Positions 28,000-45,115 of a stretch of DNA of 64,000 nt are shown here, piece by piece (positions within the stretch are counted from its first letter, which is position 1; every line of letters starts with the position of its first letter). Source of the DNA: Prolixibacteraceae bacterium (GTDB taxonomy: Bacteria; Bacteroidota; Bacteroidia; Bacteroidales; Prolixibacteraceae); assembly GCA_963676375.2 (NCBI GenBank), contig CAXXPT010000012.1, positions 3,035 to 67,034 on the forward strand, read 5' to 3'. The translations under genes were made by a program, and so were the position numbers. The notes under the pieces are model-generated. The model ran no database searches. It worked only from the letters and a program-made list of their open reading frames with translations, and was not told the origin of the DNA.

Positions 28000-28007
28000 T
28001 GTAAATT

Positions 28008-28136: not shown

Positions 28137-28874
28137 TTATTCCTTGTTGATACTTTTTTTCTTTCTCATTGATTCTCCATGTAATTCGATGCGGTGAGCC
28201 TGATGAATCAGCCTGTCTAATACCGCATCAGCAATGGTTTTTTCTCCAATAATATCATACCATCCCTGAACCGGTATTTGTGAAGTAACGATTATAGAAC
28301 CCTTATTGTGTCTGTCTTCAATGATTTCCAACAGCGTTATCCTGTTCTGACTGTCGAGTGCCTGGAGTCCAAAATCATCGAGTATAATAACATCTTGCCT
28401 TTCGATTTTCGCTAGTTCCTTCAAGTATGAGCCATCGGCTTTTGCCATTTTTAACTTGGAAAACAGCTTCGATGTATTGAAGTAATTTACCCGGTATCCC
28501 TGGATACATGCCTGATAACCCAGTGCCGTTGCCAAATAACTTTTACCCACACCAGTACTTCCTGTGATTAAAACGTTCTCGTTCTTCTCTACGAACTCAC
28601 ACTCTCCAAGTCGTAAAATGAGGTTGCGTTCCAAGTTCCGTGATTGATCAAAAGTGATGCTTTCGATGTTTGATTTGTAATGGAACTTGGCATTTCTAAT
28701 TAGTCTCTCTATTTTTCGGTTGTGGCGCTCGTCCCATTCGGCATCAATAATCATGGACACAAACTGATCGATGGTGTAATGGTCTGTTTTCCCGGTTTCG
28801 ACTGCAGTTTTAAATGCACCATGCATTCCGGAAAGCTTCATTTGTCTCATTTTCGTTAACGTTGATTCATTCAT
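28137..28874 (-). CDS. istB: IS21-family helper ATPase IstB
   Basis: Walker A GSTGVGKS and Walker B IILDDFG, with the typical N-terminus MRQMKLSGM. Confidence 0.9.
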   Translation of the reverse strand: MNESTLTKMRQMKLSGMHGAFKTAVETGKTDHYTIDQFVSMIIDAEWDERHNRKIERLIRNAKFHYKSNIESITFDQSRNLERNLILRLGECEFVEKNENVLITGSTGVGKSYLATALGYQACIQGYRVNYFNTSKLFSKLKMAKADGSYLKELAKIERQDVIILDDFGLQALDSQNRITLLEIIEDRHNKGSIIVTSQIPVQGWYDIIGEKTIADAVLDRLIHQAHRIELHGESMRKKKSINKE

Positions 28875-28892
28875 AATAATTTGATTTTAAGT

Positions 28893-30440: not shown

Positions 30441-30501
30441 AATCCGTTCCTTTTTTGAACGAAAGTATGGGTAACGACATGAAAAAAAGTAACTGATTTT
30501 A

Positions 30502-30612
30502 GGTGGTCAGTTTCCTCCGGAAACAGTGGTCAATTTGCTCCGGAATCTAGTGGTCAGTTTGCCCCGGAAATGGTGGTCAATTTAAACTGGAATCAGGTGG
30601 TCAATTTCACCG
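30502..30612. repeat. IS21 subterminal direct repeats, right end (5 copies, about 22-bp period)
   Basis: Five copies of (A/G)GTGGTCA(G/A)TTT, each followed by a CCGGAA-like or CTGGAA spacer. Confidence 0.75.
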
Positions 30613-30888
30613 TTTTTTCCACTGACATAATAACGTAAAGTTTTACAAGTTTACAACCTCAGTTTCGATTGAGATTTTTCATAATTGTTGTAGATTGTCG
30701 CGTGAAATTGATTGATCAATAATAATTGTCAAATAACTGATACAAAAAATAATATCATTCATAAGTATGGATAGCTACCCTAATCTTGCTGTATACCCTT
30801 TCTTTTGGTAGCGATACAAAATAGTTACATGCAATAATTTAACTTGCAAACGAAGAGATTGATAATTGATTCACAATAGAGCATAAAA

Positions 30889-31704
30889 ATGGCAGCAATA
30901 CCTAAAATTCCGATAGAGATATTAAGAAAGTTATGCGACATTATTGGTGAAACATCTAATGGGCTTTCAAATACTGAGATATCTAAGATGCTCGCTGACT
31001 GTCAAATCAATGATGTTGCCCCAACCCTTAATAAAAGGACAAGAGTATATGAGGCTTTAATTAATAAACAAAATCAAGACAATTGCTCAAATAATATTTT
31101 GAAATTTATTACAACATTTGTTAGTCCAGTAAGCTATATCGGAAATAAGAATCTACACACTGAAAGACTTGGTTACATTAATGAAGTTTTATTATTTGCA
31201 GGATTACAAATTGATGAGAGAGGAACTTTATTAAAGGCAACTGCAGCAAAGACAATAGACGAAGCACAAGAACGCGCTGGTCGTTTAAAGAAAAAACTTG
31301 TTGATAGAGCCGTTCATTCCGATGTCATCAGATTTTGTAACGCAGAACTTCTTCAAGAGAATTATTTTCATGCTGTCTTTGAATCAACAAAAAGCGTAGC
31401 AGATAAGATCAGGGAAAAAACAGGTTTGACACTTGATGGCGCAGACCTTGTAGATAAAGCATTTGGACTTGGACCAACGAACACTCCTAAACTTGCATTT
31501 AATTCCTTGCAGACAGAATCTGAACAAAGTGAGCATAAAGGATTTGCTAATTTACTCAAAGGATTATTTGGAATGTTTAGAAATGTGACAGCACACGTTC
31601 CAAAAATAAAGTGGACGATTAATGAAGAAGATGCACTTGATAGTTTAACAATGGCTTCACTATTACATAGAAAACTTGATAAATGCGTACCGACAGGATA
31701 CTAA
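30889..31704 (+). CDS. HEPN-superfamily protein (Ymh / TIGR02391-like)
   Basis: 271 aa. The C-terminal domain carries an Rx4H motif, R231-NVTA-H236 (FGMFRNVTAHVPK), as in the Ymh clade of HEPN. Confidence 0.65.
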   Translation: MAAIPKIPIEILRKLCDIIGETSNGLSNTEISKMLADCQINDVAPTLNKRTRVYEALINKQNQDNCSNNILKFITTFVSPVSYIGNKNLHTERLGYINEVLLFAGLQIDERGTLLKATAAKTIDEAQERAGRLKKKLVDRAVHSDVIRFCNAELLQENYFHAVFESTKSVADKIREKTGLTLDGADLVDKAFGLGPTNTPKLAFNSLQTESEQSEHKGFANLLKGLFGMFRNVTAHVPKIKWTINEEDALDSLTMASLLHRKLDKCVPTGY

Positions 31705-31769
31705 AAACTGTTTGTAATATGTAGGACTTTAAGCGGTGCGCAGTACCAAGCGTGAAGTCCCGGTTGAAC
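31643..31769 (+). other. attC-like imperfect palindrome after the HEPN gene
   Basis: GTTTAAC-aatgg-CTTCAC ... GTGAAG-tcccg-GTTGAAC. It has a 7-bp outer stem (one G-T), symmetric 5-nt spacers and a 6-bp inner stem, 127 bp in total. The boxes fit RYYYAAC/GTTRRRY. Confidence 0.45.
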
Positions 31770-32014
31770 TACATCCGCATACAGTATCTATTATGGGCTT
31801 ATCAAGGGTATATTGATTCTGATCAGATTGAAATTCGGTAGCTTTCCCCAATTTGGGGGCTTAAACTTACCTTTTTCGCGTTCTGAGGGAAAACTTTTCG
31901 CGAAAATTGCCTGGCCATTCTTCGGAATTGCTTTTTTATTGACTCTTTTTGTCCGGATTAGGCCATACGGCTCCGGCCCTTCCGGATGAAAGGGTTTTGG
32001 TCAGGATGGATGTT

Positions 32015-33166
32015 TTATTGGTGGTTCCGGATATTTTGTGCGTAAAAGCTTGTTGGAGAACGGACCCGTGGCAATTCCTCGACCCGTTGCATGGTTCCCT
32101 GTTTGCAATACGGACACCGACATACATCGAAGCCCGTCAACCGTTTGATTCGCTCCCGCACGTTTTCTTTGGGCTTGAGGCTGATCTCCGTTTTAGGGTT
32201 TTGCTTTTGCTTCAATGCCCTTGCACGGCTGCTGTAAATGCCATACCGGCGTATCTTTACAAAACGGTGCGGCAAAATGTGCTGGCAAAACCTCCGGAGA
32301 AATTCCACCCCGGTGAACGTGACTGGTTTTTGTTTAGCTCCATTGCGATAATCTTTGTGGCGAAAAGTCACACCTGTTTGGTCAACTTTAATTATCCGCT
32401 GGTTGGTAATGGCCACCCGATGTGTGTATTGTCCCAGGTACCTAACCACATGTTCTGCTTTAGCCAGCGAGGGTTCACAATTCACCGACCAGGGTTTGTT
32501 TCTTGCCGCTTTGAGCAAAGGTTTGTACTGCTCATATAACGATTGTTTTTTTAGCCGGCTTTCGATGCATTCCATCAGCTTTCCCCGAAATACCGAGCTT
32601 AACTGTCTGACCGGATACAGGTATTTTCCACTACTCCCAATGTGCTTCATATTTCCGGCAAGTGTTTCCCCTGCTGCCGGAACAATGCAATGAATGTGAG
32701 GGTGCAGACTCAGGTTTTGCCCCCAGGTGTGCAGCACACACACTGCTCCTGTTTCCACCCCGAAACGAGTATAACCCAGTTGGCGCAGGGTTTCCCAAAC
32801 AGCGGAAAACAAACGAATGTAAAACCATTGGCTGTCCAACAGGCAAATGGCATTCAATTCGTGCGCAACCGTGAACACAATATGGTAATGTTTTACCTCA
32901 AGTGTGGTTTCAAGTAAGTCTTCTACCCAGAATGCCTGCTTTGATCCCTGACATTTGGGGCAGTGGCGGTTGCGACAACTGTTATAGCTGATCCGATGTT
33001 TGCCACAGCAATCACATACCTCTTTATGGCCACCTAATTCCGAACTACGGCAAATGCTCAGGGCATTCAGTACCCTTTGCTGGTAACTGTTGGGATGATA
33101 TTCCGATGTAAACTGCGCTCCAAATTGCCGGATTACATCGGCAATCTCGTATTGCGGGCGATTCAT
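32015..33166 (-). CDS. IS91-family (HUH, Y2) rolling-circle transposase
   Basis: N-terminal zinc-binding CDCCG...CRNRHCPKCQ, an HUH-type LHPHIHCIVP, and a Y2 region VVRYLGQYTHRVAI. Confidence 0.9.
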   Translation of the reverse strand: MNRPQYEIADVIRQFGAQFTSEYHPNSYQQRVLNALSICRSSELGGHKEVCDCCGKHRISYNSCRNRHCPKCQGSKQAFWVEDLLETTLEVKHYHIVFTVAHELNAICLLDSQWFYIRLFSAVWETLRQLGYTRFGVETGAVCVLHTWGQNLSLHPHIHCIVPAAGETLAGNMKHIGSSGKYLYPVRQLSSVFRGKLMECIESRLKKQSLYEQYKPLLKAARNKPWSVNCEPSLAKAEHVVRYLGQYTHRVAITNQRIIKVDQTGVTFRHKDYRNGAKQKPVTFTGVEFLRRFCQHILPHRFVKIRRYGIYSSRARALKQKQNPKTEISLKPKENVRERIKRLTGFDVCRCPYCKQGTMQRVEELPRVRSPTSFYAQNIRNHQ

Positions 33167-34065
33167 TTCTTTACCCGGTACAGCGTATCCAGAGGGCTGT
33201 GTGCCTTAATCAGCGGACATTGGGCAACGTGAAGATAAATCATCGTGGTGGCAATGTGTGCATGCCCCAGAAGTTCTTTTAGGGTAACAATGTTCAGACC
33301 TTCTTCCAGCAAATGGGTGGCATAGGTGTGCCGTAGCGAATGCAGGGTGACCTCTTTTCGGATCGCGGTTTTCTTCAGCGATTCGCGCATTACCCACGAC
33401 AGACCCCGAACGCTGTAGCGGCCATCGGGTTCATGCCCGTTAAAAAGCCAGATGTGCGGATGCTCTGCCTGAAGGTACTTCTTCAGCCCTTTGGCCATAT
33501 TATCAGCCAGCGGAACGATACGGTCTTTCTTGTACTTGCTTTGCCGGATGTGAATGGTTCGGCGCTCGAAGTCGATGTCCGACAGTTTCAGGTTGACCAC
33601 TTCCTGCCCACGGAGCCCGGCCGAATAAATCAGCGTTAACACAATGCGGTGTTTGAGCAGCGTGGGTGCCTTAAACAGTTCTTTCAGCTCCGAACGGTTC
33701 AGGATAACGGGCAACTTTGCCTCCTTTTTGAGTGAGGGCAGGGAAATGACTCTTTTGTTTTGTCCGATCAGCCTGAAATAATACCGCAATCCATACACAG
33801 CATGCTTAAACGTGCTTCGCGAAGCTGATTTAGCAGACAAGGCAAGCCCGGTTAGGTATTCGTTGATTTCCTCATCCATGACATGTTCGGGCAACCGTTC
33901 AAAATGAAGCGAGATTTGCGCAATGCGCCGGATGTAATTATCAAGGGTGCTATGGCTTTGGCCACGAAGGGTAACTTGTTGATTAAGCAATTTCAAGGCA
34001 GCAGCAAAGCCTTCAATGGTTTCTGTGGCATGTTCCACGATTGTTTGTCCTGATTTCTTTCTCAT
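33163..34065 (-). CDS. tyrosine recombinase with integron-integrase-like C-terminus
   Basis: Catalytic LRHTYATHLL and LGHAHIATTMIYLHV. HV is followed by 9 residues then SPLDTL, the same spacing as IntI1 (HV-x9-SPLDAL). It lacks the roughly 40-aa IntI-specific insertion. Its stop overlaps the transposase ATG (ATGA). Confidence 0.85.
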   Translation of the reverse strand: MRKKSGQTIVEHATETIEGFAAALKLLNQQVTLRGQSHSTLDNYIRRIAQISLHFERLPEHVMDEEINEYLTGLALSAKSASRSTFKHAVYGLRYYFRLIGQNKRVISLPSLKKEAKLPVILNRSELKELFKAPTLLKHRIVLTLIYSAGLRGQEVVNLKLSDIDFERRTIHIRQSKYKKDRIVPLADNMAKGLKKYLQAEHPHIWLFNGHEPDGRYSVRGLSWVMRESLKKTAIRKEVTLHSLRHTYATHLLEEGLNIVTLKELLGHAHIATTMIYLHVAQCPLIKAHSPLDTLYRVKK

Positions 34066-34329: not shown

Positions 34330-35898
34330 ATGAATGATGAATTAAAATATATATTGACAGATTTTCTCAATATTAAAACCGATTCCTTTAAGAAAGAAAT
34401 TTCAGACGGAATTGAGTTTAGTTTATCATTTCCTCTTCCTTCGATAGGTTTTTCAAATAGTAGGATTGATATTATTAGAGATTATACTGAGGTTTCATAT
34501 TGCTGTGAAGAAATAGCTCCTTTTATAACAATACTAAATTCAGATTTTGTTACAAGGGAGAAATATTATAAGGACTTTAAATTTTCATGTATAGCCAATG
34601 ATGTAGAATCCCTAACAGAGAAATTAGTATTCTTTGCTGAAATGTTACATGGAGACTCTTCTGATTATGATGATATTGATAGAATATGCTTCTTTGATGA
34701 GCTTTCTGAATATGAAGAAAGTTATTCAAAAAGAGAATTTGTTTTTCCTGAATTAATTAATAATTACTGGGCAAACCTAATTAATGGAGCATATTGGGAG
34801 TTCGCATCAGAATATGAGGAATCTGAAAGTAAATTCTTCGCTAAAACATATAAAAAATATCCAGAGCACAGATACGGATTTTGGAAAAGTCCTCTATCCA
34901 AAGATTTTAAAGAGCCAATTTTTTTCTCAACTGAAAACTGGATTATACCACCAAAAACAGACTTGATTGAATCTTTAAAAATTTACTCAGGTTTAGAACA
35001 TAAATTAGTTTTAGAAGCAGCAGATAGAATTGACTACCAAGATCAAATAATATTGTTAAGTAATTCAACTGCTGTTCGTTTTTCTCAGGAAAATGACTTG
35101 ATAAACTCAATAAAATGTACCGAAAGAGCTCTGATGCTTAAAAACAATAAGATTGATAGTGTTAAAGTAACCAATTTGAATAAAACTATTGTACAGAAAG
35201 ATCTATTTGGAGAAGAAGTTCAGCAAAAGAAAGTGAATAAACGAATTAGGCATAATGACAATATCCAAGTTGATTATTCAAAATTAAAATTCAGTCTTTC
35301 AGAATATGGTGATTTAGTAACAGTTGAATACAATAATTATACTCATGTATTCTTTTATAATGAGCCACTTACATTTGATAAAATCAAAGACTTAAATTCT
35401 TATTTGTATCCTGCATTTTCAAAAACACAGAAATTAATTGACAATTCAATAACTGGTACTTGTGACTGGACAAAGTTAGACGATGATTCTTTTGAGGAAC
35501 TATGTTATGATATTTTATATTGTCACCCTCATTTTGATTTCACTACAATAAAAAAAATGGGAAAGTCAAAGTCGAGAGATGGTGGACGTGATATTACAAT
35601 AAAAACAAGAAGGACTCCTACTAAAGAACCAGAACTCTATATATTTCAATGTAAGTTTTTATCCGAAAAGACATCATTATCGACTTCTAAATTACCAAAT
35701 GCGGGAAATGTAATAATGCAATTTGGAGCAAAAGGATATGGCGTTTTTACAAGTACTGTAATTGACTCTACTTTGTATGACATGTTGGATGGATTTAGTC
35801 GGAATATGCATGTTGATACTTCATTTAGTTGGTCGAAGTATGAACTTGAAAGACATCTAAATAAAAATGTAATGATTAAGGATAAACATTTCAAATAA
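34330..35898 (+). CDS. Mrr-type (PD-(D/E)xK) restriction endonuclease domain protein with uncharacterised 370-aa N-terminal region
   Basis: The C-terminus FEELCYDIL...SRDGGRDITI...LYIFQCKF matches the Mrr_cat pattern. The gene is very AT-rich. Confidence 0.65.
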   Translation: MNDELKYILTDFLNIKTDSFKKEISDGIEFSLSFPLPSIGFSNSRIDIIRDYTEVSYCCEEIAPFITILNSDFVTREKYYKDFKFSCIANDVESLTEKLVFFAEMLHGDSSDYDDIDRICFFDELSEYEESYSKREFVFPELINNYWANLINGAYWEFASEYEESESKFFAKTYKKYPEHRYGFWKSPLSKDFKEPIFFSTENWIIPPKTDLIESLKIYSGLEHKLVLEAADRIDYQDQIILLSNSTAVRFSQENDLINSIKCTERALMLKNNKIDSVKVTNLNKTIVQKDLFGEEVQQKKVNKRIRHNDNIQVDYSKLKFSLSEYGDLVTVEYNNYTHVFFYNEPLTFDKIKDLNSYLYPAFSKTQKLIDNSITGTCDWTKLDDDSFEELCYDILYCHPHFDFTTIKKMGKSKSRDGGRDITIKTRRTPTKEPELYIFQCKFLSEKTSLSTSKLPNAGNVIMQFGAKGYGVFTSTVIDSTLYDMLDGFSRNMHVDTSFSWSKYELERHLNKNVMIKDKHFK

Positions 35899-36091: not shown

Positions 36092-36643
36092 ATGAAAATT
36101 GCATGTTTAGGTTGGGGATCATTAATTTGGCAACCCAAAAACCTACTTATTAGGAGAGAATGGTTTTCGGATGGACCGTTTTTACCAATCGAATTTGCAA
36201 GAAAATCACAAGATGGCAGATTAACACTTGTGATAACGGAGACAGCTAAACCGATTCGGACATTGTGGGCATTAATGGCGACAGAAAATCTCGATACTGC
36301 TAAAAATTCTTTGCTAGTTCGAGAAGGAATTCCCACAAAAAATATAGATAGTTCTATCGGATCAATAACAATAACAGAAGAAACTGAGAACAAGATAAAG
36401 TTGATTATAAGGGACTGGGCAAATAGGCAGGGACTAGATGCTGTTATATGGACAAACCTTCCACCAAAGTTTGATGCGAACACTTGTGAACCCAGTTTAA
36501 TTCAAGCAATTGATTATTTAAAATCTTTAGATATAAATTCAAGATCAAATGCCGAGGAATATATCAGAAAAACGCCGAAACAAATTGATACGGATTTTAG
36601 ACGGAAATTTGAATCAGAATTTGATTGGACATTTGTTTCTTAA
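36092..36643 (+). CDS. gamma-glutamylcyclotransferase-like (ChaC/GGCT fold) protein, tentative
   Basis: The N-terminal ACLGWGSLIWQP resembles the ChaC/GGCT signature [FY]GYGSLIW. The protein is 183 aa. Confidence 0.4.
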   Translation: MKIACLGWGSLIWQPKNLLIRREWFSDGPFLPIEFARKSQDGRLTLVITETAKPIRTLWALMATENLDTAKNSLLVREGIPTKNIDSSIGSITITEETENKIKLIIRDWANRQGLDAVIWTNLPPKFDANTCEPSLIQAIDYLKSLDINSRSNAEEYIRKTPKQIDTDFRRKFESEFDWTFVS

Positions 36644-36683
36644 CGCACGAACGCACAACATCCAGAAGGTGGAAGATTTGAGC

Positions 36684-36902
36684 ATGCTTATCGAAAAATG
36701 GCGCAAGCCCACCGAAACCAGAAGGAACCTGCAAACCTTCTCTCTGGGAGCAGATGGGTTGGGTGCAACAGTATTCCTTTGGGACGCATCAGGAAAAGAG
36801 GTTAAAACTTCTAACACTCCGGTAGTATTCGCTGTGATGGAAGAAATCAAAACGACTTTGGATGAACGGATCAAAGAAGTTGAAACCCAGATCAAGTTCT
36901 GA
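36684..36902 (+). CDS. small hypothetical protein or gene fragment (72 aa from ATG 36684)
   Basis: The ORF lies in a locally GC-richer segment and is followed directly by a strong hairpin. The upstream part of track ORF 36549 overlaps the previous gene and is probably not translated. Confidence 0.3.
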   Translation: MLIEKWRKPTETRRNLQTFSLGADGLGATVFLWDASGKEVKTSNTPVVFAVMEEIKTTLDERIKEVETQIKF

Positions 36903-36904
36903 AA

Positions 36905-36933
36905 AAAGAAAGAGGCGAAATGCCTCTTTCTTT
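36905..36933 (+). terminator. stem-loop terminator candidate
   Basis: AAAGAAAGAGGC-gaaat-GCCTCTTTCTTT forms a perfect 12-bp stem starting 2 nt after the stop codon. Confidence 0.55.
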
Positions 36934-37042
36934 AAGAGTATGAATAGAGTACTTTTATTAGTCAGAAAACAAAAAATAGTAATTGACAATTGACTCTTAT
37001 TGTTTATCTTTGATATAATATTAAAATTCAATTACAACTCCA

Positions 37043-38320
37043 ATGTATATTATTACGGTACTTAAGGATAAATCCATCAAAGAGGAAATCAGTAAATTAT
37101 TCAGCATTAGAGATTCTTATGATACCATACACATAAAACTCCCTTTAATAGAGTGGATTAGTGCGAATAGCCTGAATTTTCTTGTGACATTTATTGTCTC
37201 CAATAGATATCATTTCCATTTTAAAAAGATTATTATCGAGCTTTTTGAAGCTAAAATTATCTCAGACGTATTAGAAGAAAATGATGTTTCTGAGGAAATA
37301 CTTGACTCATTGACCAAAAAATTAATATTCTATGAGTCGATGGAGTTATATGAGAATATAAATTATGATTATGTTATACAGTTTCCAAACTGCGATACCT
37401 TAAAAAAAGTGAAGGAGTTATTGGTTTCTCATGAATATGAAAAAAAATGGATGTATTCTTCCAAGATGCTGGCGCTTAATCCTCTAATTAATGACGAAAA
37501 AGAACAAATATATCTTACTGCCCGGCTAAATACATTGACAAATATTATATTTCATAATCTATATGGTAAAGTAGATTATGGTGAGGCAAGAGAGGCTAGC
37601 TCCCAGATAATGTATGAACTCGTGAAGAATATATATCAACACGCATATAGTGAGGATATTAGTGCCAGACTGGAGAAACACGGTATAGCCTGTGCGCAGA
37701 TTAATAAATTTCCAATTATCCAAAATAAAGAATATAGTTTAAAGGATATTAGCGGAATTTTAGAATTGGTTAAAAAAAGGACGAAAGGCAAAGTCTGGAA
37801 ATTTTTATCCATTTCGATTTGTGATTTCGGTGTTGGTATTAATTCAGTAATTAGAACAGATTTGAAAAGTAAGTTGACAAGTGAGAAAAGCGATTTTACG
37901 ATCGGTGAATTTACTGTGAATGAAGAATTATTGGCGGATGACTATAAGTTGATCGAGATCCCCATAAGAACTGAGTATAGTACCAAGACTTTATCCGACA
38001 AAAGAGAAGATTGGACAATTAGTAAAGAAAGAAAACTGGTACTTTCTAGAAGGGGGCGGGGATATATTTTCTGCATTTGCTTCGTTGGCGAATTTTTTGG
38101 AAGGATGCAGATTCGAAGCAATAATTATGTATTGGATGTCTTTGCCAAAGAAAGTGCTGCATTGAGAAGTACTAAGTGGAGAACAGAACCCGAAGAATCA
38201 CTTGCTATCATTGAGAAAGAATTTGGGAATTACTTTCAAATAATACAAAAAAAAGAAAAAGGATTTTTCCCAGGAACTCAAATCATAATCGAAATTCCAG
38301 TCGAAGTTTTTCAAAATTGA
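37043..38320 (+). CDS. GHKL-type ATPase-like protein (histidine-kinase/anti-sigma-kinase-like ATP-binding fold)
   Basis: N-box-like E192-LVK-N196-IYQHA, G1-box-like D261-F-G-V-G265, RRGRGY, and the terminal GTQIIIEIP typical of HATPase_c ends. The N-terminal 180 aa are uncharacterised. Confidence 0.55.
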   Translation: MYIITVLKDKSIKEEISKLFSIRDSYDTIHIKLPLIEWISANSLNFLVTFIVSNRYHFHFKKIIIELFEAKIISDVLEENDVSEEILDSLTKKLIFYESMELYENINYDYVIQFPNCDTLKKVKELLVSHEYEKKWMYSSKMLALNPLINDEKEQIYLTARLNTLTNIIFHNLYGKVDYGEAREASSQIMYELVKNIYQHAYSEDISARLEKHGIACAQINKFPIIQNKEYSLKDISGILELVKKRTKGKVWKFLSISICDFGVGINSVIRTDLKSKLTSEKSDFTIGEFTVNEELLADDYKLIEIPIRTEYSTKTLSDKREDWTISKERKLVLSRRGRGYIFCICFVGEFFGRMQIRSNNYVLDVFAKESAALRSTKWRTEPEESLAIIEKEFGNYFQIIQKKEKGFFPGTQIIIEIPVEVFQN

Positions 38321-38330
38321 CATTATTACA

Positions 38331-40334
38331 ATGAGTTATAATTGGAACGAAGTAGCATTGGTTGATTTAAAAAATCAGCCTTTTAGAAATAATAATGGTA
38401 TTGAAATAAATTTATTGGATTATCTGTTTAATCAGATTAATCTAATTGTTAAGCAACAAGAGCTTAGTCAAAAAAATAGTTTTGAAAAATTCAGGCAAAG
38501 TCGCTGTTTGATTTGTTTGGATTCGGTAAATATATCAAATGAAGATTGCTCGCTTTTGGACACTCTTATCCCAGTAAGTGAAAAACATCCATTTATTTTA
38601 ATCAATTGTTCTGTTGATTCTATCAATCTTTTTTCACTTGCATTACATGCCGATTTTCAAAGGCTGGGGTACATTTTACCCATATTTGGACAATTAACAC
38701 CAATTGATCCTGTTTATGTCAAAGAAAAGTATGGAATCAAATTTTATGAATTTTTAAATGGAGAAGTTGACACGCTTTCAATCTCGGATTTAAAAGATCC
38801 CGACAAAGTTTTGGTTGATGATATTCTTAGAAGGTATTCATATCTCGAATGCATAAATGATGTTTTAAGGTTTGTGGATAATCACATTGAATGGTTGGGG
38901 GTCAAATCTAAAAAATTCAAAGACCTGCTAAATCATTTATATTCAAGTAATAGGGAATGTTTTGATCCCCAGTGGGCAGTCAATACTTTTGGTGTCTCTG
39001 AAAGTGAATTAAATCGTTATAGCCAAAGTTCAATGCTGTTCAGCAAAGAAGGTGATCAAATCAGGTTCAGATTTCTAAAAAGCAATTTGTTTTTAAAGAT
39101 TCAGTCAAAACTATACTACCAATTTGAAGAAAAAATGATCGAAGCCGAAGCTTTGCAGGTCTATAGAAAAACCAAAGCAGGCGAAAGCAGTTTTAATGAG
39201 TATCATAATATTGGGAGGGTCTTTGAAAATACAGATCGGTATAAGCTTAAGTTACTGGCGGCATTCAAGAAGAAAATAGCATATCATTTTCCGGACTTTC
39301 TCTATCCTCAGCAGAAATCAATTATCTTGATTGATAACGGTTATGAATCAGGAATGTATTTCCTGCTAAAAAAGTATTTCCCCAGCAAAAAGGTAACCAG
39401 AATTCTGAATTGCCATGATCATCCAATAATTTACCCGTTTGATGAAGAGATTAATAGTTCAGATAACGCAATTGTGGTAATTGATCTCATCAATACCGGT
39501 AATTTTCTTAGTAAAGTAGTCAAAATGGTAAAGGATATGTATAAAGCGGAAATCTTCGCAGTTTATACATTCGTTATTAATGGCTCAATAGCGACAAATC
39601 AGATCAGTTCCGCACCTATTTTTTCATATGTGGAAAAGAAACTTGAAAAGTCAGATGAAATAAAGGATATCTTACATGCAACCAGAGACAATGCTCGTGA
39701 CAATTTCAGATATAAAAGCTTTTGGCAAATCATTAATAATGTGGGCAGCATTGATGGGAAAATTCAACAAAATGTCGTTAGAAAGGGAGGTTCTATTTTT
39801 TATACACTATACAGAAACAAGATTTTTGTTGACGTAAAAAATCCTTCTTTTGAAACGACTGATTTTAATGTTTTTTTGGGAACAATAATAACATCGAATA
39901 ACATTAATAAAATAATTTTTCTCAGCGAGAACTCGAAATCGTTTTTCCATTCACTGAATGATTTTTCTAAGTATACGGTTAACTCGGTGATTTTTAATAG
40001 TAAAAGCAAAACATTTTCATCCCAAATTTTTGACTCGGATCGGATTCTAATTTTGGATGTTACCTTATTAAGCGGACACAACATCGAAGCTTGTTTAACT
40101 GAATTAGATAAAAAAGAATACCATAATCGTAAAGTTTTTGTCGCTGTTTTCTTTGAGAAAAGGATTATCGATGAAAATGTTATTGGTAAAATTGATTCTT
40201 TAGTTAATCTGCACCCGGAATTGAAGGGAAAAATCTTTAAATATTACACAAGTAATATTCCTTTTTATAAAATTGATAAAGACTCAATTAATTCAAGCAG
40301 AATAAAAAATAGTTTAGAAAAATATAAGAAATGA
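38331..40334 (+). CDS. protein with two phosphoribosyltransferase-like (type I PRTase) segments
   Basis: AIVVIDLINTGNF (aa 380-392, nt 39468-) and RILILDVTLLSGH (aa 571-583, nt 40041-) resemble the PRPP-loop pattern (hydrophobic x4, acidic, xxx[TS]G). Each is preceded by a beta-strand/Gly segment (SIILIDNGYESG). Each has one acidic residue rather than two. Confidence 0.45.
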   Translation: MSYNWNEVALVDLKNQPFRNNNGIEINLLDYLFNQINLIVKQQELSQKNSFEKFRQSRCLICLDSVNISNEDCSLLDTLIPVSEKHPFILINCSVDSINLFSLALHADFQRLGYILPIFGQLTPIDPVYVKEKYGIKFYEFLNGEVDTLSISDLKDPDKVLVDDILRRYSYLECINDVLRFVDNHIEWLGVKSKKFKDLLNHLYSSNRECFDPQWAVNTFGVSESELNRYSQSSMLFSKEGDQIRFRFLKSNLFLKIQSKLYYQFEEKMIEAEALQVYRKTKAGESSFNEYHNIGRVFENTDRYKLKLLAAFKKKIAYHFPDFLYPQQKSIILIDNGYESGMYFLLKKYFPSKKVTRILNCHDHPIIYPFDEEINSSDNAIVVIDLINTGNFLSKVVKMVKDMYKAEIFAVYTFVINGSIATNQISSAPIFSYVEKKLEKSDEIKDILHATRDNARDNFRYKSFWQIINNVGSIDGKIQQNVVRKGGSIFYTLYRNKIFVDVKNPSFETTDFNVFLGTIITSNNINKIIFLSENSKSFFHSLNDFSKYTVNSVIFNSKSKTFSSQIFDSDRILILDVTLLSGHNIEACLTELDKKEYHNRKVFVAVFFEKRIIDENVIGKIDSLVNLHPELKGKIFKYYTSNIPFYKIDKDSINSSRIKNSLEKYKK

Positions 40335-41470
40335 TAGAAAACATTGAAGACCAATTAATATCCAATTCAATGGATATCTTGTCAAAACTCAGGGATGATG
40401 AGATGCTTGTTTCTGTATTTTTTATTGATCAGATTAATTTTTATAGAGATAAGAAATTAGCATCTTATTTTATTAACAAGATTCTAAGTGAAAATCAAAA
40501 ATTTGGAAGAATAAAAATTGCTGGAATTGTTGATGCAATTTATGAATATCAACTAAGCTCTTCAATTTCAGAGGAAGTTGTAGAAAGCTTAATTCGACTG
40601 GTTGAAAATTACTTTTATGATAATGACTCATCGGACACTTCTTGGATAAATAAGGTTCTGGATATCGTGCTTAATTCATACAGCCCCAGAAAATTGGAAA
40701 TGCTTATTGATATTTTGAGTTTGCGGTTTAAGCCCTATCCTGAAAAGCATTTTGGGATTTTTTCAGAAAAATTGCTGAAAACGATCTTAATAGAAAAAGA
40801 ATTAAATGTCAATTTTAAATATCAAGCCAAAATTTACAAACTTAAAATTGAGGATGCAAGTAAAGAAGAGGAAGAAAAAAACATAAAACATCATATAAGT
40901 CGAATAATTAAAGAATTAAGTATGATCCCATCAAAAAAAATTATTGATGTTTTTATTTCATATTCTCATGAAGGTGATGAGCATAAAACTAAGGTGATCG
41001 AATTTACCAATCATTTAAGAAAGTTAGGCTTTAACGCCAAGTGTGATTTCTTTTTAAAACAACAGGAAACATCCATTGATTTTGATGAAATGATGTTGGA
41101 CCAGATATCACGTTCTGATAAAATAATTTTAGTACTAACCGAAGAATATAAAAGGAGAGCTGATGATACAAAGCAATCTGGTATTAAAGATGAAATGAAA
41201 TTAATAAAACAGATACTTGAAAAGAGTGATAATAAAATAATTTTGGTCTCATTCAAGTCTCTGCCACAACAGATAAAACCCGACCAAATTACTCCACTTT
41301 GGTTAGCATCTAGGGAAGTGATCGATCTAAAAGATGACATGAATCACGGTTTACGAACCTTAATCTCAAAATTGAAAGAAATTGAATTATTGAATTTTGT
41401 CGAAGTAAATTCAGAGCAAAGTGAAATTGAATCAGAGAAAATAGGGAATTTTACTCTCGATGATATTTAG
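40331..41470 (+). CDS. TIR-domain protein with helical N-terminal region
   Basis: DVFISYSHEGDEH at aa 206-218, ILVLTEEY, and SGIKDEMKLI containing a candidate catalytic Glu288. Its ATG overlaps the upstream stop (ATGA). Confidence 0.7.
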   Translation: MIENIEDQLISNSMDILSKLRDDEMLVSVFFIDQINFYRDKKLASYFINKILSENQKFGRIKIAGIVDAIYEYQLSSSISEEVVESLIRLVENYFYDNDSSDTSWINKVLDIVLNSYSPRKLEMLIDILSLRFKPYPEKHFGIFSEKLLKTILIEKELNVNFKYQAKIYKLKIEDASKEEEEKNIKHHISRIIKELSMIPSKKIIDVFISYSHEGDEHKTKVIEFTNHLRKLGFNAKCDFFLKQQETSIDFDEMMLDQISRSDKIILVLTEEYKRRADDTKQSGIKDEMKLIKQILEKSDNKIILVSFKSLPQQIKPDQITPLWLASREVIDLKDDMNHGLRTLISKLKEIELLNFVEVNSEQSEIESEKIGNFTLDDI

Positions 41471-41508
41471 AATAACTACAAAATTAATTTTGGTTTTTTG
41501 TATGCAGA

Positions 41509-42059
41509 TTATTTGACGTTTTTTATCAAAGTGAACTCGTCTTTTCTATTCCGAAGTTCAATTGCTTTATCAATGTAAGCTCCAACCCCCTTGATAAAGT
41601 CCACCCATTTTACTGATTCGATGTACGAACAATCTTCAGGATAAACCTAGAGTCTGTTACACAGATTTCTTTGAGGCGCTTTTGTGTTGAACATGTTGTC
41701 TATAAGTATTTTTAATAATGTCGGTGTATTTAATCTTAGGCAATTGCATATTGGATCATAGGTAATGTAATAATCATACCTGCTGTTTTCATCGGGCAGA
41801 ACAACCGCGATAACTCCGTTGGTTTTACTTCGTTGGCCTTGCCTGCAGTTCCTTTAAAGAATATGAAATTCCATGCTCTCGCCGTCGTCCTCACCATTGT
41901 AGATGTGGTCATCGTTTTCAAGCATTTCAGCTAGTTTATCTACATAATGCCGTGCTGTCGTCGGAATCTTCTGCCGAAAAAATCGACTACTTCATAAATA
42001 TTCAAATCTTCTACCAGCGAATCAGAATATTTGTATGAAACAAAGACTTTTCTTCCCAT
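41509..42059 (-). pseudogene. decayed ThsB-like TIR (DUF1863-type) gene
   Basis: The minus strand reads MGRKVFVSYKYSDSLVEDLN..., then needs frameshifts to continue TARHYVDKLAEMLENDDHIYNGEDDGES, ...SKTNGVIAVVLPDENSRYDYY..., NMFNTK... and YIESVKWVDFI. There are at least two stops or frameshifts, and a central segment is missing. Confidence 0.6.
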
Positions 42060-42061
42060 AT

Positions 42062-42655
42062 CTAAATTTGATCAATAAGTAAATCCTGAAAAAGAGACAT
42101 GTACTCATAATCGTGGAGTAAACGCTCGTTTTTTTTGACTTGCCGCAACCTATCGTAAACCAACTTTGAAGCTGCTCCGGTACTTGCTATAGGCAGGATA
42201 AGAGCTTTGGAGTTATACTTTCGGAACATTTCGTATTCTTCCAGGATTCCGTCCATACCACCAATAAAGATTGCAGCTGTGAAGTTATTCTCCGAAAACA
42301 TTCTTTCCCGCATCAATCTTACACTTGATTCTTTTGTTCCTGAAGTTCTGGTTAGAATGACATTATTAAAATCAAAATTGGACGCATGGAAATTCTCTAT
42401 GAAGAATTCCGATTGATAGAGAGTGACATGGTCTTGAATATCCATGTTCAATTTCTCCAAAACGTTATAAATAATCGGAGTGATCGACGGGTGACCTCCC
42501 CAAATTAATTTAAACCTTGGCAGTATACTAATTGCAAGGGCAATTACGGCATCCCGAATAGCAATGACATCAGCCGTTTCGAAATATTTTGGATCTCTTT
42601 CTTTTAACGGGATACTCGCGGAAAGGAATATATTTTTTAATTTGTCTGAAACCAT
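42062..42655 (-). CDS. standalone SLOG/LOG-like (STALD-type) domain protein
   Basis: 197 aa with LIWGGHPSITP, then FIGGMDGILEE (GGxxGxxxE-like) and PIASTGAA, which is the Rossmann/LOG pattern. Its start overlaps the upstream TIR gene by 19 nt. Confidence 0.55.
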   Translation of the reverse strand: MVSDKLKNIFLSASIPLKERDPKYFETADVIAIRDAVIALAISILPRFKLIWGGHPSITPIIYNVLEKLNMDIQDHVTLYQSEFFIENFHASNFDFNNVILTRTSGTKESSVRLMRERMFSENNFTAAIFIGGMDGILEEYEMFRKYNSKALILPIASTGAASKLVYDRLRQVKKNERLLHDYEYMSLFQDLLIDQI

Positions 42656-43803
42656 GATTCAAATTCTTGCTTTTTGATCGTTTTAACATCTAAATAAGTG
42701 TTAAGATAGTCTAAATGGCGTAACCACTTCTCTCTGATTCTAATATTGTCATAGATAAGAAAAACTTCGTCTACCGAGTATTGCTTGATCTCTCTCTTCA
42801 ATTCAGACGACTGATTGTAGTCGATCGACTGAGGTATACCAACAGACGGGATGAAAATTCTTCTTTTGGTTTCAGATAATTCCTCGGTTATGAACCGCTC
42901 AGGTTGTATGTTTACCCTTCTGCCGTTTTTTCTGGCTAAATTTAGGAATTCCGTGATCAGACTTTCCTCCCTGGCTGCCAGGTTTCGTGCCCTGATTGAT
43001 TCAACTTTTTGGATGATGTTGTTCACAACATCATCTGTCAGTCTCGAAAGATCCTTATCTCCATATATGTTGGATTTAAAACTATCAGTCTCTAATTGAT
43101 ATGGGAAACAAACTTCAGCCATTGGAGACAATGTCTCATCCGGCCAAATTAATTGCAATACACCAATTCGCTTGACACTTGCTTCGGCTATTTCTTTTTC
43201 ACACCATTCACTTTTTAAAAAATTTGGCGTGTTTAAAAGGACTATGACATCACAATCTGTCATTCGATGCCATAATTCTTCTTGGAAAGGTTCTCCCTGT
43301 TTGATGGAATGGGTATCGAGAAAAACGTCAAAGTTATTCTTTTCTAAGGCTTCGTATAATTGAATTGCAACGGACGAAGATTCGTCTCTCTTATAACTAA
43401 TGAAAACTTTTCTGGTGTTTCTTAATTTGCCAAAAGATTCCAGAATTAAACTAACTACTTTCTCTTTTTGGTAATGATCCCACTTAAGCCCATTCTGATT
43501 TTCAAGAATCTTTGGAATTTCATTTTTAAACGAATCATAAAAGATGGGCAGCACTATTTTACCAAGGCTGATGAGTCTTTCGACAATTGCGATATCCTCA
43601 TATTTTCTAGTAGGACTACCGAAATAAAGGGCGTAAGTCGGTTGATTGGCTTCGAAATCCCGGTCAAATTGCGATGCATAAATGACTCGGTAAAACTTTT
43701 CCTGAAGCTTTAGTTCTCTGATCCTTTGAAACAGTAAATCTATGATTTCATTAGCTAATTTTTCGGGACTTCCAAGAATAACTATTTGATATTTATATTC
43801 CAT
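42637..43803 (-). CDS. TIR-domain protein flanked by uncharacterised N- and C-terminal domains
   Basis: KVFISYKRDESSSVAIQLYEAL and NFLKSEWCEKEIAEA (a W-C-x2-E catalytic-Glu motif). The track starts at a TTG (43830), and I prefer ATG 43803 (MEYKYQIVILG). Confidence 0.7.
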   Translation of the reverse strand: MEYKYQIVILGSPEKLANEIIDLLFQRIRELKLQEKFYRVIYASQFDRDFEANQPTYALYFGSPTRKYEDIAIVERLISLGKIVLPIFYDSFKNEIPKILENQNGLKWDHYQKEKVVSLILESFGKLRNTRKVFISYKRDESSSVAIQLYEALEKNNFDVFLDTHSIKQGEPFQEELWHRMTDCDVIVLLNTPNFLKSEWCEKEIAEASVKRIGVLQLIWPDETLSPMAEVCFPYQLETDSFKSNIYGDKDLSRLTDDVVNNIIQKVESIRARNLAAREESLITEFLNLARKNGRRVNIQPERFITEELSETKRRIFIPSVGIPQSIDYNQSSELKREIKQYSVDEVFLIYDNIRIREKWLRHLDYLNTYLDVKTIKKQEFESWFQTN

Positions 43804-44317
43804 AATTTTGATCGGGGTATAATAATTCAATCGAAGTTTCCGCTCTGGTTTAACCCTTTTGGACTAGGCTTATTAGTATCATTCGAAGTAAAAAGACATT
43901 GAGTTATAGCTATTATGATTTTTCCCAACTCCAATTTTAACACAAATAATACTTCTACGGCACTTAAAATTTTTAATTTCACTGTAAATATAATAAAAGG
44001 CGATTTATCCATTGAGATGAAATCGAAATATTTTCACCTCTTTTTCTCTACTCACTCTGCCAAAGAAAGTAGCTATTTTGAATGCTCATAGATTTGATAT
44101 TAATAATCACTTTTAAGTCGCCATTACAAGAGCTATTAGAGATTGGTTATTTTTTAACTTAGATACAATTGACTTTCGTTGAAAAGCAACAGTTAGATTG
44201 TTTCACCCTTTGCATTCTATTCATTAAATTTGATTATATTTGTATTGTAATGAATTGAATATCAGGCGAGACTATATCGAGACCTGTTGAAATAAGCATT
44301 TAGTAAAACATTGATAA

Positions 44318-45115
44318 TCAGCTTGGAATAAGGATGCGTTCAAACTCCAGCTGGGTCACTTGATGAGACAAATCCAATATTGATGGATTTGTCTCATTTT
44401 TTTTGCCTTGTATTTTGCTGTTTATCAGTAGTATCAGATTCAATGCTTCATTTATATGAGTGGTTCGATATTGAAATCCGTCAAAAGTCAGTTTTTCGGG
44501 GAACATCGAACAATGATTTTTCTTTTCTATGTTATAGTTCCATTTTCATACAAAACATCCAATTGTGAATTTCTGCTGATAGCTTTATCCCATAAGGGTT
44601 CTATGTTGGTTGTGTCCGTTACTGAAGCTGATAATTTAACTTCCAGTCTGTTTATTCGTTCCTCACTTTCGGATTTTATTGTGCGGTAATCATCAGCTTC
44701 AATGTCACCACAGAGCAACAATTCTCTTGCTTTTGAAAGACTTTTATTGGCTTCTTCCAGCTGCATTTTCAATTCCTGAACTTCGTTGCGCTGGACATGT
44801 GTTTTAGTCTTATAAACACTAATAATTACCTCGTTGAATTATTTAAGCCGTGCCAAAGGTTGATCATACTCCCCGGATTTCATCCACCATCATAACATTT
44901 ACTTCCGGAGCTTTATAACGGATACCACATTCGGAACTACAATGATAATAATGGTAGTAATGATTACGTCCTTTAGAGGCGCTGGCAATTAATATCCTTC
45001 CGCAATTGGAACCTACCAGAAAAACTCTTAATGGGATGTTATCATCGGTAATTATCTTGGTTCGTTTAACTCTTCATTCATCGCATTTTCAACTATAATG
45101 AGAACAGCGTAAAAA
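44318..45115 (-). pseudogene. decayed large serine recombinase (C-terminal zinc-ribbon and coiled-coil parts only)
   Basis: The minus strand reads ...CGRILIASASKGRNHYYHYYHCSSECGIRYKAPEVN then a stop. It continues in other frames as ...LEEANKSLSKARELLLCGDIEADDYRTIKSE... and ...FPEKLTFDGFQYRTTHINEALNLI. No resolvase catalytic domain was seen. Confidence 0.6.

Follow-up and report, generated by a model that had tools for sequence, protein, structure and literature searches.

The closest described counterparts of the operon considered here are two bacterial immune arrangements built around GHKL-type serine kinases. CapK is a helix-turn-helix (HTH)-STAS-GHKL serine kinase activated by single-stranded DNA (ssDNA), and its substrate CapS is a STAS-winged-helix-turn-helix (wHTH) protein (Chambers et al., EMBO J 2026, PMC13373217). 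The VapKSC anti-phage system comprises the STAS-GHKL kinase VapK, the STAS antitoxin VapS, and the PIN toxin VapC, and is often located near other defence genes (PMC13373217). Furthermore, in ShosTA, PsyrTA, and type III retrons, toxicity resides in phosphoribosyltransferase (PRTase) domains (10.1101/2025.09.30.679545; Millman preprint), and bacterial SEFIR is reported to deplete NAD+ (10.1101/2024.02.11.579819; Millman preprint). The subject of this report is a run of three genes, referred to as the trio, at positions 37043–41470 of a 64,000-nucleotide (nt) stretch of DNA from a Prolixibacteraceae bacterium (contig CAXXPT010000012.1); this whole stretch is referred to as the window, and gene 1, gene 2, and gene 3 denote both the genes and their products. 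A first-pass annotation of the window had proposed the trio, read as GHKL-ATPase-like, tandem PRTase-like, and TIR proteins, as a candidate undescribed defence system. The three genes are as follows.

37043–38320, forward strand: gene 1, kinase/ATPase-like component, 425 residues (open reading frame [ORF] and a family of 27 clusters)
38331–40334, forward strand: gene 2, multidomain PRTase-like component, 667 residues (ORF and 27 representatives)
40331–41470, forward strand: gene 3, effector, 379 residues (ORF and a homologous N-terminal domain in 14 of 14 distinct loci)

Taken as a whole, the trio is best explained as a horizontally mobile anti-phage system of three components that is self-contained and acts by abortive infection, a reading to which a probability of approximately 0.5 is assigned. 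That the trio is a three-gene defence or abortive-infection system in the broader sense is considered likely, and partner switching as the specific mechanism is suggested tentatively, by analogy. Computational support is available for the reality of the genes, their folds and motifs, synteny, co-divergence, effector swapping, the defence and mobile contexts, and absence from the catalogues. None of the computational outcomes that the first-pass annotation had named as counting against its proposal was encountered, namely absence of the folds, lack of synteny, or identity with a named system.

The tight coupling of the genes is as originally described: the TGA of gene 1 is followed by a 10-nt spacer (cattattaca) and the ATG of gene 2, and the TGA of gene 2 and the ATG of gene 3 form an ATGA overlap. 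The DNA is extremely AT-rich, again in agreement with the annotation, with a GC content of 0.311 in the trio and 0.333 in the surrounding island (34.1–45.9 kb) versus 0.42–0.43 in the flanks. At the composition of the trio, the mean random reading frame is approximately 12 codons, and the chance probability of a stop-free run is 2e-15 for 379 codons and 1e-26 for 667 codons. All three are regarded as real genes because homologues of each exist elsewhere.

The family is very rare. Pattern-limited scans revealed three loci in 185,579 species genomes and eight in 241 million metagenome records; no trio was found in viral contigs by the pattern-limited scan, and tblastn searches of plasmid and phage records with gene 1 yielded no match. 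The hosts include members of Sedimentisphaerales (Planctomycetota), Halieaceae (Gammaproteobacteria), and Dorea (Firmicutes), and the trio recurs in at least three phyla besides that of the window. Metagenomes frequently contain one Firmicute lineage (103 contigs), in which the trio is carried by an element with RepA_N/ParAB and transposases.

Conservation of gene order, which the annotation had recommended checking, was observed in every locus found. With hidden Markov models (HMMs) for gene 1, gene 2, and the N-terminal domain of gene 3, the order gene 1-gene 2-gene 3 on one strand was recovered in every locus of sufficient length (14 distinct systems), the exceptions being contig ends and one split gene 2. 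The spacing ranges from −14 to +38 nt between genes 1 and 2 and from −4 to +34 nt between genes 2 and 3. The pairwise similarities of gene 1, gene 2, and the gene 3 N-terminal domain correlate over 78 locus pairs (Spearman 0.72–0.77), a correlation that is descriptive only because locus pairs are not independent. In the loci seen, the gene 3 N-terminal domain never occurs apart from genes 1 and 2. The split gene 2 lies in the locus designated L011 (3087–5209) and consists of two overlapping ORFs (137 and 621 residues), with a type III methyltransferase downstream; either this copy is in decay or the assembly contains a frameshift.

Gene 3 consists of a conserved N-terminal domain and a C-terminal end that differs among loci. 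In the window, the two parts are as follows.

40331–40870, forward strand: conserved N-terminal domain of gene 3, residues 1 to ~180, proposed docking/regulatory domain (alignments, HMM)
40946–41362, forward strand: SEFIR/TIR domain of gene 3, residues 206–344, with candidate catalytic E288 (Pfam, PADLOC, PDB)

The N-terminal domain of approximately 175 residues has an invariant D33 and conserved G65, Y73, and GIxxALxEYQ, and its HMM matches gene 3 in every locus (E 1e-20 to 1e-64). No match to this domain was found in Pfam, PADLOC, NCBIfam, PHROGs, or PDB, and in these searches it resembles no known nucleotide-sensor domain. The C-terminal domain in the window is the TIR domain of the annotation, more precisely a SEFIR-type member of the TIR superfamily: Pfam TIR_2 matches at 5.9e-11 and SEFIR at 7.8e-11, the PADLOC bSEFIR model PDLC03957 matches residues 187–355 at 3.3e-28, and further matches were obtained to the Bacillus cereus SEFIR structure 5y8f in PDB (E 1.4e-3) and, by BLASTP, to the TIR core of the neighbouring ThcB4 (E 0.007). 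Both motifs cited in the annotation are present; DVFISYSH begins at residue 206, and the Glu of GIKDEMKLI is E288, which is a candidate catalytic Glu based on by-eye alignment to the W-C-x-x-E motif. NAD+-depleting chemistry of gene 3 is plausible because the protein matches the bSEFIR model and Pfam SEFIR and TIR_2. Across the 14 loci, referred to by L numbers outside the window, the gene 3 C-termini are as follows.

SEFIR/TIR domain: window locus
CAP12-PCTIR TIR domain (PADLOC PDC-S35): L002
One or two predicted transmembrane helices (7 of 14): L001, L003, L009, L011, L013, L015, L016
Alpha/beta-hydrolase, matching the Lamassu LmuA model (1e-9): L012
Calcineurin-like phosphoesterase (Metallophos, 2e-11): L014
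Unassigned domain: L005, L010, L021

No TIR similarity was detectable in the C-termini of L005, L010, and L021, and Pfam yielded no PIN match among 12 gene 3 versions. The TIR domain is thus present in the window as annotated but does not belong to the core of the system, since at least five ends, this one included, are interchangeable. A conserved coupling domain combined with exchangeable toxic domains is the standard abortive-infection design.

An additional small PCTIR-type TIR gene (149–169 residues) is located 31–51 nt upstream of gene 1 in four loci (L002, 3158–3634; L005, 7509–7958; L010, 7319–7828; and L021, 3212–3664), three of which have an unassigned gene 3 C-terminus. These proteins match PADLOC PDC-S35 at 1e-40 and the PycTIR and CBASS-TIR models at approximately 1e-10, and the loci are either a four-gene variant of the trio or the trio beside a single-gene candidate system.

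Gene 1 belongs to a family of 27 clusters (30–42% identity) in a collection of 5.8 billion proteins; none of the 27 has a Pfam match, and one is labelled "hypothetical protein" by JGI, the others being unnamed. The AlphaFold2 (AF2) model of gene 1 has a mean predicted local distance difference test (pLDDT) of 82.3 and a predicted template modelling (pTM) score of 0.85. Two domains are recognized.

37043–37447, forward strand: N-terminal alpha/beta domain of gene 1, residues 1–135, suggestively STAS-like (AF2 secondary structure, hhalign)
37565–38320, forward strand: GHKL/Bergerat-type ATP-binding domain of gene 1, residues ~175–425 (invariant motifs, CapK/VapK profile match)

The ATP-binding domain contains all four GHKL motifs: an N-box (E192-x3-N196), G1 (D261-x-G263-x-G265), G2 (G338-x-G340), and G3 (G411-T412). 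Over 23 family sequences, E192, N196, D261, G263, and G338 are invariant, and G265, G340, G411, and T412 are retained in at least 90%, which bears out the GHKL signatures of the annotation, including N196 and D261. As the annotation had stated, no transducer/S5 domain is present, and no H-box was found. Direct matches to classical GHKL proteins are individually non-significant: Pfam HATPase_c matches none of the 23 members, a PDB profile search yielded no significant GHKL match, and hhalign against seven Pfam-validated GHKL domains yielded E 0.02–0.1 (controls 0.3–0.9). Foldseek against PDB had a best E of 0.12, and 28 of the top 50 matches are GHKL ATPases, including Topo VI-B, viral topoisomerase II, GyrB, MORC2, Hsp90, and CheA; against BFVD, the top match (E 4e-3) is followed by HATPase_c, rIIA, topoisomerase, and Hsp90-like proteins.

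By contrast, the gene 1 family profile aligns with a CapK/VapK profile at a probability of 93.3% (hhalign E 2.7e-7; negative controls E 0.08–0.7). The alignment extends from the N-box to the G1 box, with one strand (GFACAQ/VFSCGQ/GFAALQ) in common. With VapK alone, the probability is 54% (E 1.2e-4, 135 columns), whereas classical kinases match the gene 1 profile far worse (E 0.09) than CapK/VapK does. A CapK/VapK HMM run over 928 ORFs from the window and 23 loci placed gene 1 homologues in the top 14 positions (E 4e-4 to 0.44), and a gene 1 HMM run over 13 reference proteins retrieved VapK first, followed by two CapKs. The CapK and VapK sequences were obtained from Appendix Table S2 of PMC13373217; the VapK copy is short by approximately five residues, which can only weaken the similarity. 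The CapK/VapK profile itself matches SpoIIAB/RsbW/EnvZ/PhoQ at 94.1%, and the similarity of gene 1 to bona fide GHKL members is therefore indirect, through the CapK/VapK profile. Gene 1 is thus predicted to be a GHKL protein of the type seen in anti-sigma-factor kinases, remotely related to the CapK/VapK serine kinases; therefore, the control logic of the three genes is probably not wholly new.

The N-terminal domain of gene 1 has the element order beta-alpha-beta-alpha-beta-alpha in the AF2 model, with invariant W38, S40, and L44 and near-invariant N45, and W-I-S-A-N-S-L-N opens the helix at residues 41–58. Against Pfam-validated STAS proteins, hhalign yielded E 0.0021 with a probability of 13.6% over 74 columns (nine controls, E 0.1–0.7), and the loop with invariant S40 falls on the phospho-Ser loop of SpoIIAA in this alignment. 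A PDB profile search with the domain revealed nothing significant. A STAS-like identity of this domain is suggestive.

Two observations concern viral proteins. Residues 162–369 of gene 1 (window 37526–38149) match the phage family phrog_3364, of uncharacterised function, at E 1.8e-6, and the GHKL region matches an unnamed 233-residue viral protein (J7KH07) in BFVD at E 4e-3 with a probability of 1.00. Phages may encode relatives or mimics of the kinase-like domain of gene 1.

Gene 2 is represented by 27 homologues in 1.84 billion proteins searched exhaustively by phmmer, nearly all of 660–753 residues. A word-indexed search had returned the query alone, even with a five-sequence profile, and orphan status was rejected once homologues were recovered by the exhaustive scan and locus look-ups. 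The 8000-candidate pre-filter of that search can miss AT-rich, low-complexity proteins; therefore, its lack of homologues is not read as orphan status. The sixth sequence of the first alignment (L002, 3–2063) was dropped as unrelated; it resembles a restriction-enzyme fragment. The AF2 model, based on 22 family members, has a pLDDT of 83.6 and a pTM of 0.82 and is divided into four parts.

38331–38765, forward strand: N-terminal alpha/beta domain of gene 2, residues 1–145 (AF2 model, alignment)
38805–39080, forward strand: winged-helix-like region of gene 2, residues ~159–250 (AF2 helix/strand pattern)
39228–39743, forward strand: PRTase-like domain 1 of gene 2, residues ~300–471 (Foldseek, profile matches)
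39744–40334, forward strand: PRTase-like domain 2 of gene 2, residues 472–667, degenerate duplicate (hhalign internal repeat)

The model resembles APRT, OPRT, and UPRT structures (Foldseek E ~1e-6, probability 1.00, TM-score 0.60–0.66 on the target), with 141 matches at E ≤ 1e-3, and the PRTase core fold is present. The Foldseek matches came with no query ranges, and claims at the level of single domains are based on sequence-profile positions and on the internal repeat. The sequence-profile matches are marginal and well under curated cut-offs (NCBIfam E 2.5e-4 to 0.09); the best is to APRT (NCBIfam 2.5e-4, residues 373–424), Pfam UPRTase matches at 0.058, and weak OPRT-like/UPRTase matches occur at residues 559–625. 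Positions 377–423 of the family profile match the phosphoribosyl pyrophosphate (PRPP) loop of APRT/HGPRT. Furthermore, residues 300–471 match residues 472–667 at 94.4% (hhalign E 8.8e-8, 86 columns) with strand, loop, and helix in register, versus approximately 1% or less in domain-pair controls. The description of gene 2 as tandem PRTase-like is correct because of this internal match; the model confidently indicates a type I PRTase fold, internally duplicated, with a degenerate second copy.

The PRPP loop of type I PRTases consists of four hydrophobic residues, two acidic residues, and then x-x-[ST]-[ST]-G-x-T. Neither domain of gene 2 carries this canonical loop. Of the two PRPP-loop-like segments reported in the annotation, the first, AIVVIDLINTGNF (residues 379–391, domain 1), is conserved over 22 sequences in the pattern hhhh-x-D385-h-h-N388-T-G390-x-F, with D385 in 21 of 22 and N388 and G390 in all 22, whereas the second, RILILDVTLLSGH (residues 571–583, domain 2), is present but not conserved. 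D576 in the second segment, proposed for mutagenesis, is retained in 5 of 22 sequences and is not a conserved residue; most members keep a relic I-N-x-G in domain 2, where the window protein has L-S-G instead. None of the 22 sequences has an acidic residue at position 384, and therefore the whole family lacks the acidic pair found in catalytic type I PRTases. N388 is invariant where PRTases carry D, A, or T, and F392 replaces the final Thr. Domain 1 also contains invariant E290 and H292 and near-invariant D335-N336-G337, R357, and K436, which argues for a real pocket.

In the N-terminal domain of gene 2, L76, P87, N92, P117, and D126 are invariant, D64 is near-invariant, and position 74 is S or T in 20 of 22 sequences. 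No STAS or CapS signal was detected there by hhalign (E 0.2–0.6), and this negative result, also for VapS, is uninformative because the verified STAS domains of CapS and CapK fail the same test; the domain may still conceal a cryptic STAS fold. A PDB profile search with the N-terminal half yielded nothing significant. The winged-helix-like region has an invariant W188 and G190 in WLGV, and its profile match to the ArsR-family wHTH repressor CadC (1u2w) is non-significant (E 0.29).

In comparison with described systems, VapKSC is similar in its three-gene order of kinase, middle protein, and toxin, in that the gene 1 family profile matches CapK/VapK kinases better than any classical GHKL protein tested, and in that gene 1 begins with an alpha/beta domain with a suggestive STAS signal. 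However, the homology is remote. As a candidate STAS-GHKL kinase without HTH, gene 1 has kinase-domain homology of this remote kind and a STAS match of E 0.002 at 14%, and VapK has 296 residues (in the slightly short copy) compared with 425 in gene 1. The middle protein is a tandem PRTase-like protein of 667 residues rather than a 116-residue STAS protein such as VapS (hhalign E 0.35–0.64), gene 3 is not a PIN nuclease and combines a private N-terminal domain with exchangeable effectors, and neither a VapS-type nor a PIN-type protein was recognized in the trio. The ssDNA trigger of VapK cannot be mapped onto the trio. Similarly, CapK-CapS shares with the trio a GHKL kinase of the same lineage and a possible winged-helix protein at the head of an immune gene; however, gene 1 lacks an HTH, its alpha/beta domain being at the very N-terminus, gene 2 differs from a STAS-wHTH protein of approximately 180 residues (E 0.2–0.34 against CapS), no intergenic promoter or operator lies between genes 2 and 3, and gene 3 always has its co-evolving private domain, which points to post-translational control. 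The trio is accordingly not categorically new, because it most plausibly works like VapKSC with a kinase from the same broad lineage.

The effector-bearing systems differ more widely. Residues 187–355 of gene 3 match the bSEFIR model, and gene 3 has a SEFIR-type domain; however, bSEFIR is a stand-alone protein with an N-terminal SEFIR domain (Millman et al. 2022), whereas the domain here is C-terminal (residues 206–344 of 379), is preceded by an unrelated domain, and is encoded in an obligate three-gene operon. Gene 3 is not a Thoeris component (ThsB E 0.017); the adjacent ThcA/ThcB4 pair is complete alone on the opposite strand, and the other 13 loci have no adjoining Thoeris genes. ShosTA, PsyrTA, type III retrons, and the OpnC protein of Ophion share the type I PRTase-fold domain with gene 2, although in those systems it is a single-domain toxin or enzyme with DprA-like, reverse transcriptase (RT), or radical SAM (rSAM)/PHP partners, whereas the trio has a partly degenerate tandem pair in a 667-residue scaffold, lacks the acidic pair, and encodes a separate effector. 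The window gene 2 has no ShosT match and no DprA-like gene is found in the operon; furthermore, no RT was present among the scanned ORFs of the 34–45 kb island, where non-coding RNA was not searched. Lamassu LmuA, Detocs DtcC, and CBASS/Pycsar likewise combine a conserved coupling domain with interchangeable toxic domains, and the L012 end matches the LmuA model while the L002 end and the small upstream proteins match PycTIR and CBASS-TIR models. However, the trio has no SMC protein, no His-Asp phosphorelay (no H-box, no REC match), and no cyclase. Identity with Ophion (rSAM, PHP, and PRTase), Ambrosia (HATPase, REC, and restriction-modification [R-M]), VcSduA (paraMORC-Shedu), Detocs, ShosTA/PsyrTA, or retron III was rejected because the architectures differ.

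As the annotation had supposed, the combination is not a named system. Outside the effector domains, no named system was matched in PADLOC 2.0, NCBIfam 20.0 (June 2026; this release already names the neighbouring Thoeris III proteins), Pfam, or PHROGs beyond marginal PRTase matches and phrog_3364, and no paper describing an operon of GHKL, tandem PRTase, and effector genes was found in the searched literature. Two of the three conserved components, gene 2 and the gene 3 N-terminal domain, are without a described counterpart.

The trio is located in an AT-rich cargo segment beside insertion sequence (IS) and conjugation genes. Left of the island, a mobile-element cluster (window 26990–34065) includes a YWFCY/type IV secretion system coupling protein, an IS21 copy (IstA/IstB) with 36-nt inverted repeats (28038–28073 and 30572–30607), a Hypoth_Ymh protein (PF09509, 6e-42; phrog_6297, 2e-54), and an IS91-type Y2 transposase adjoining a tyrosine recombinase. 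The GC content changes from 0.50 to 0.33 at approximately 34.1 kb, and the right side of the island is followed by GH2, ROK, and MFS metabolic genes. An integron-cassette origin, considered since the recombinase faces the island, was set aside: the recombinase is paired with the IS91-type transposase, and a repeat search revealed no flanking or attC-like repeats. The annotation's description of the island as defence-rich is confirmed at least by a complete Thoeris type III pair (42062–43830, reverse strand), convergent with gene 3 and approximately 590 nt from its stop codon. The pair consists of ThcA (SLOG cluster 3; NCBIfam 3.8e-73) and ThcB4 (TIR; 1.3e-133), which overlap in operon fashion and have a GC content of 0.366.

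The remaining genes of the island are less distinct. Its first gene (34330–35898, forward strand; 522 residues) has a weak C-terminal Mrr_cat-like match (Pfam 0.15; PADLOC PDC-M58A 0.005) and possibly encodes a defence protein of the restriction type. Shortly before the trio, 36092–36643 (forward strand) encodes a 183-residue protein without match in Pfam, NCBIfam, or PHROGs, and a PADLOC Cas8b match is at chance level (E 0.0096); its N-terminal ACLGWGSLIW is reminiscent of the YGSL motif of gamma-glutamyl cyclotransferase/ChaC-like proteins. An overlapping ORF (36549–36902, forward strand; 117 residues) is possibly spurious. Between the Thoeris pair and the right edge (44318–44772, reverse strand), ORFs of 62–81 residues had no significant family match and could be gene remnants marking the island boundary. 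A promoter candidate precedes gene 1.

36983–37019, forward strand: candidate operon promoter (sigma-70-like consensus match; the promoter type of the host may differ)

It consists of the overlapping sites TTGACA-16-TATCTT and TTGACT-18-TATAAT (11 of 12 matches, TG-extended −10), ends 24 nt before the ATG of gene 1, and has the top score in a scan of 36600–42200, in which promoter-like sites are not strongly enriched (36 versus 25.8 ± 5.5 in shuffles) and no terminator-like site was seen between the three genes.

Elsewhere, mobile DNA (conjugative, IS, or transposon genes) surrounds the trio in the window, L001, L002, L005–7, and L015. In the Halieaceae metagenome-assembled genome (L009, 12249–17061, reverse strand), the trio is directly followed by a retron-type RT (RT_VI, 5e-67) and a PtuA/PtuB-like pair (PDC-M01A/B; PtuA 1.7e-180); RT and PtuAB form a unit of their own on the strand opposite to the trio, which resembles a retron system of the Septu type. 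Other neighbours include a type III methyltransferase, a HerA/mad8-like ATPase beside E2/ThiF genes, and Cas1/Cas2 with AbiEi.

The proposed mechanism is modelled by analogy with VapK-VapS-VapC, with which the gene order is identical. Briefly, genes 1 and 2 would form an invariant sensing/switching core and gene 3 would be the executioner. Gene 2 would act as a large scaffold composed of the alpha/beta domain, the winged-helix-like region, the PRTase-like pocket domain, and its degenerate copy, and the gene 3 N-terminal domain would dock the exchangeable toxic C-terminus to the core. In the uninfected cell, gene 2, with gene 1, would keep gene 3 inactive through the gene 3 N-terminal domain. 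An infection cue, which could be a nucleic acid or a nucleotide and might be sensed partly through the phosphoribosyl-ligand pocket of gene 2, would activate gene 1 as an ATP-dependent kinase or switch; gene 1 would then free the effector by modifying either gene 2 (at S/T74, the candidate site) or gene 3. In the window system, the freed SEFIR/TIR domains would self-associate and hydrolyse NAD+, whereby phage replication would stop and the cell would be lost. From these comparisons, we infer that gene 1 acts as a kinase and on which substrate, how the effector is held and set free, what triggers the system, that the PRTase-like pocket binds a ligand, and that gene 3 is an NADase; the anti-phage function, the NADase activity, and the control mechanism are predictions.

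Several points weigh against this interpretation. Function and mechanism are predicted from sequence and models. The similarity of gene 1 to CapK/VapK is remote (61 columns, HMM scores ≤15 bits), its direct GHKL fold matches are individually non-significant, and the STAS assignment of its N-terminal domain has only a 14% probability. Gene 2 has no detectable similarity to VapS, CapS, or STAS (E 0.2–0.6), its candidate phospho-site S/T74 is not absolutely conserved (20/22), and, being six times the size of VapS, it may do something quite different. The catalytic role of E288 is aligned by eye only. Recognizable defence neighbours occur in only approximately 5–6 of 14 loci, and in L013 the trio is flanked by a ribosomal-protein operon and tsaD. 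Furthermore, PRTase-like domain 1 could be catalytic, given its many invariant polar residues, and this would favour a signalling model.

In such a model, domain 1 of gene 2, licensed by gene 1, would make a phosphoribosyl-derived molecule for which the gene 3 N-terminal domain is the receptor, and its binding would switch on the toxic C-terminus. Second-messenger control has precedents in CBASS, Pycsar, Thoeris, and type III CRISPR. The fold of gene 2 is truly that of a PRTase, E290, H292, D335, N336, R357, D385, N388, and K436 are invariant or near-invariant around the PRPP-type loop, a conserved sensor domain with a variable effector is a hallmark of signalling systems, and some loci add a small PCTIR-type TIR protein like Pycsar and CBASS effectors. 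The model is nevertheless unlikely: the acidic pair and the TG-x-T phosphate loop are absent family-wide, the gene 3 N-terminal domain is unlike known nucleotide-sensor domains, and signalling systems usually have separable effector genes, whereas this domain never occurs without genes 1 and 2 in the loci seen. The domain diverges as fast as genes 1 and 2 and co-varies with them, which fits protein docking better than recognition of one invariant ligand.

Transcriptional control of the CapK/CapS type, in which the gene 1 kinase and gene 2 as a winged-helix repressor would de-repress a stand-alone toxic gene 3 on DNA damage or infection, is very improbable. The relatedness of gene 1 to CapK/VapK and the winged-helix-like region of gene 2, with its weak CadC/ArsR match, are compatible with it, and CapK/CapS pairs precede a wide variety of immune operons (PMC13373217). 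However, gene 3 abuts or overlaps gene 2 in every locus, and the spacing of −4 to +34 nt therefore leaves no room for the intergenic promoter/operator of the capS operon used by CapS. Gene 1 also lacks the N-terminal HTH of CapK, the approximately 370 residues of PRTase-like domains would be superfluous in a simple repressor, and all gene 3 proteins share a co-diverging private N-terminal domain, whereas CapKS regulates unrelated operons.

An equally small chance is given to a role other than phage defence, as a stress partner-switch, an addiction module, or a regulator of nucleotide metabolism in variable DNA. Trio loci lie on mobile DNA, several are without a recognizable defence neighbour, and STAS/GHKL partner switching is classically a stress-response device. 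By contrast, the effector ends (SEFIR, PCTIR-TIR, LmuA-like hydrolase, and small transmembrane) are typical of phage defence, the trio is directly adjacent to Thoeris III, retron and PtuAB, R-M, or Cas genes, and its rare, patchy, cross-phylum spread is typical of defence genes; moreover, addiction and defence roles are not mutually exclusive. Finally, that gene 2 is itself the toxin, depleting or corrupting nucleotide pools in the manner of ShosT, PsyrT, or type III retrons, with gene 1 as its regulator and gene 3 as an accessory or second effector, is highly improbable despite a marginal ShosT match of one gene 2 homologue (E 0.0024), given that gene 3 already carries an exchangeable toxic module of known defence domains, the acidic pair of the gene 2 loop is lost, and the window gene 2 has no PADLOC match.

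If the trio is an anti-phage system, as preferred here, it would be an uncatalogued three-gene system with two core proteins that have no counterparts in PADLOC, Pfam, or NCBIfam. The CapK/VapK kinase class would extend from two architectures to a third, far more elaborate one, and the PRTase fold would have been recruited as a regulator or sensor, tying nucleotide-metabolite sensing to abortive infection. The swapped effectors on one docking domain provide a natural test of one switch with chemically unrelated killers, and the docking domain of approximately 175 residues is a possible search handle for further effectors. A more specific proposal, considered rather unlikely, is that the conserved pocket of domain 1 is functional, either catalytically or by specifically recognizing a phosphoribosyl metabolite (such as PRPP, a nucleotide, or a molecule of the ADP-ribose type), and is wired to a CapK/VapK-type kinase. 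If true, the immune switch would read the nucleotide/PRPP state, or write a phosphoribosyl signal, and release suicide effectors by phosphorylation-driven partner switching; this would be a sensing principle undescribed for bacterial defence and the first regulatory, non-toxin PRTase fold in immunity.

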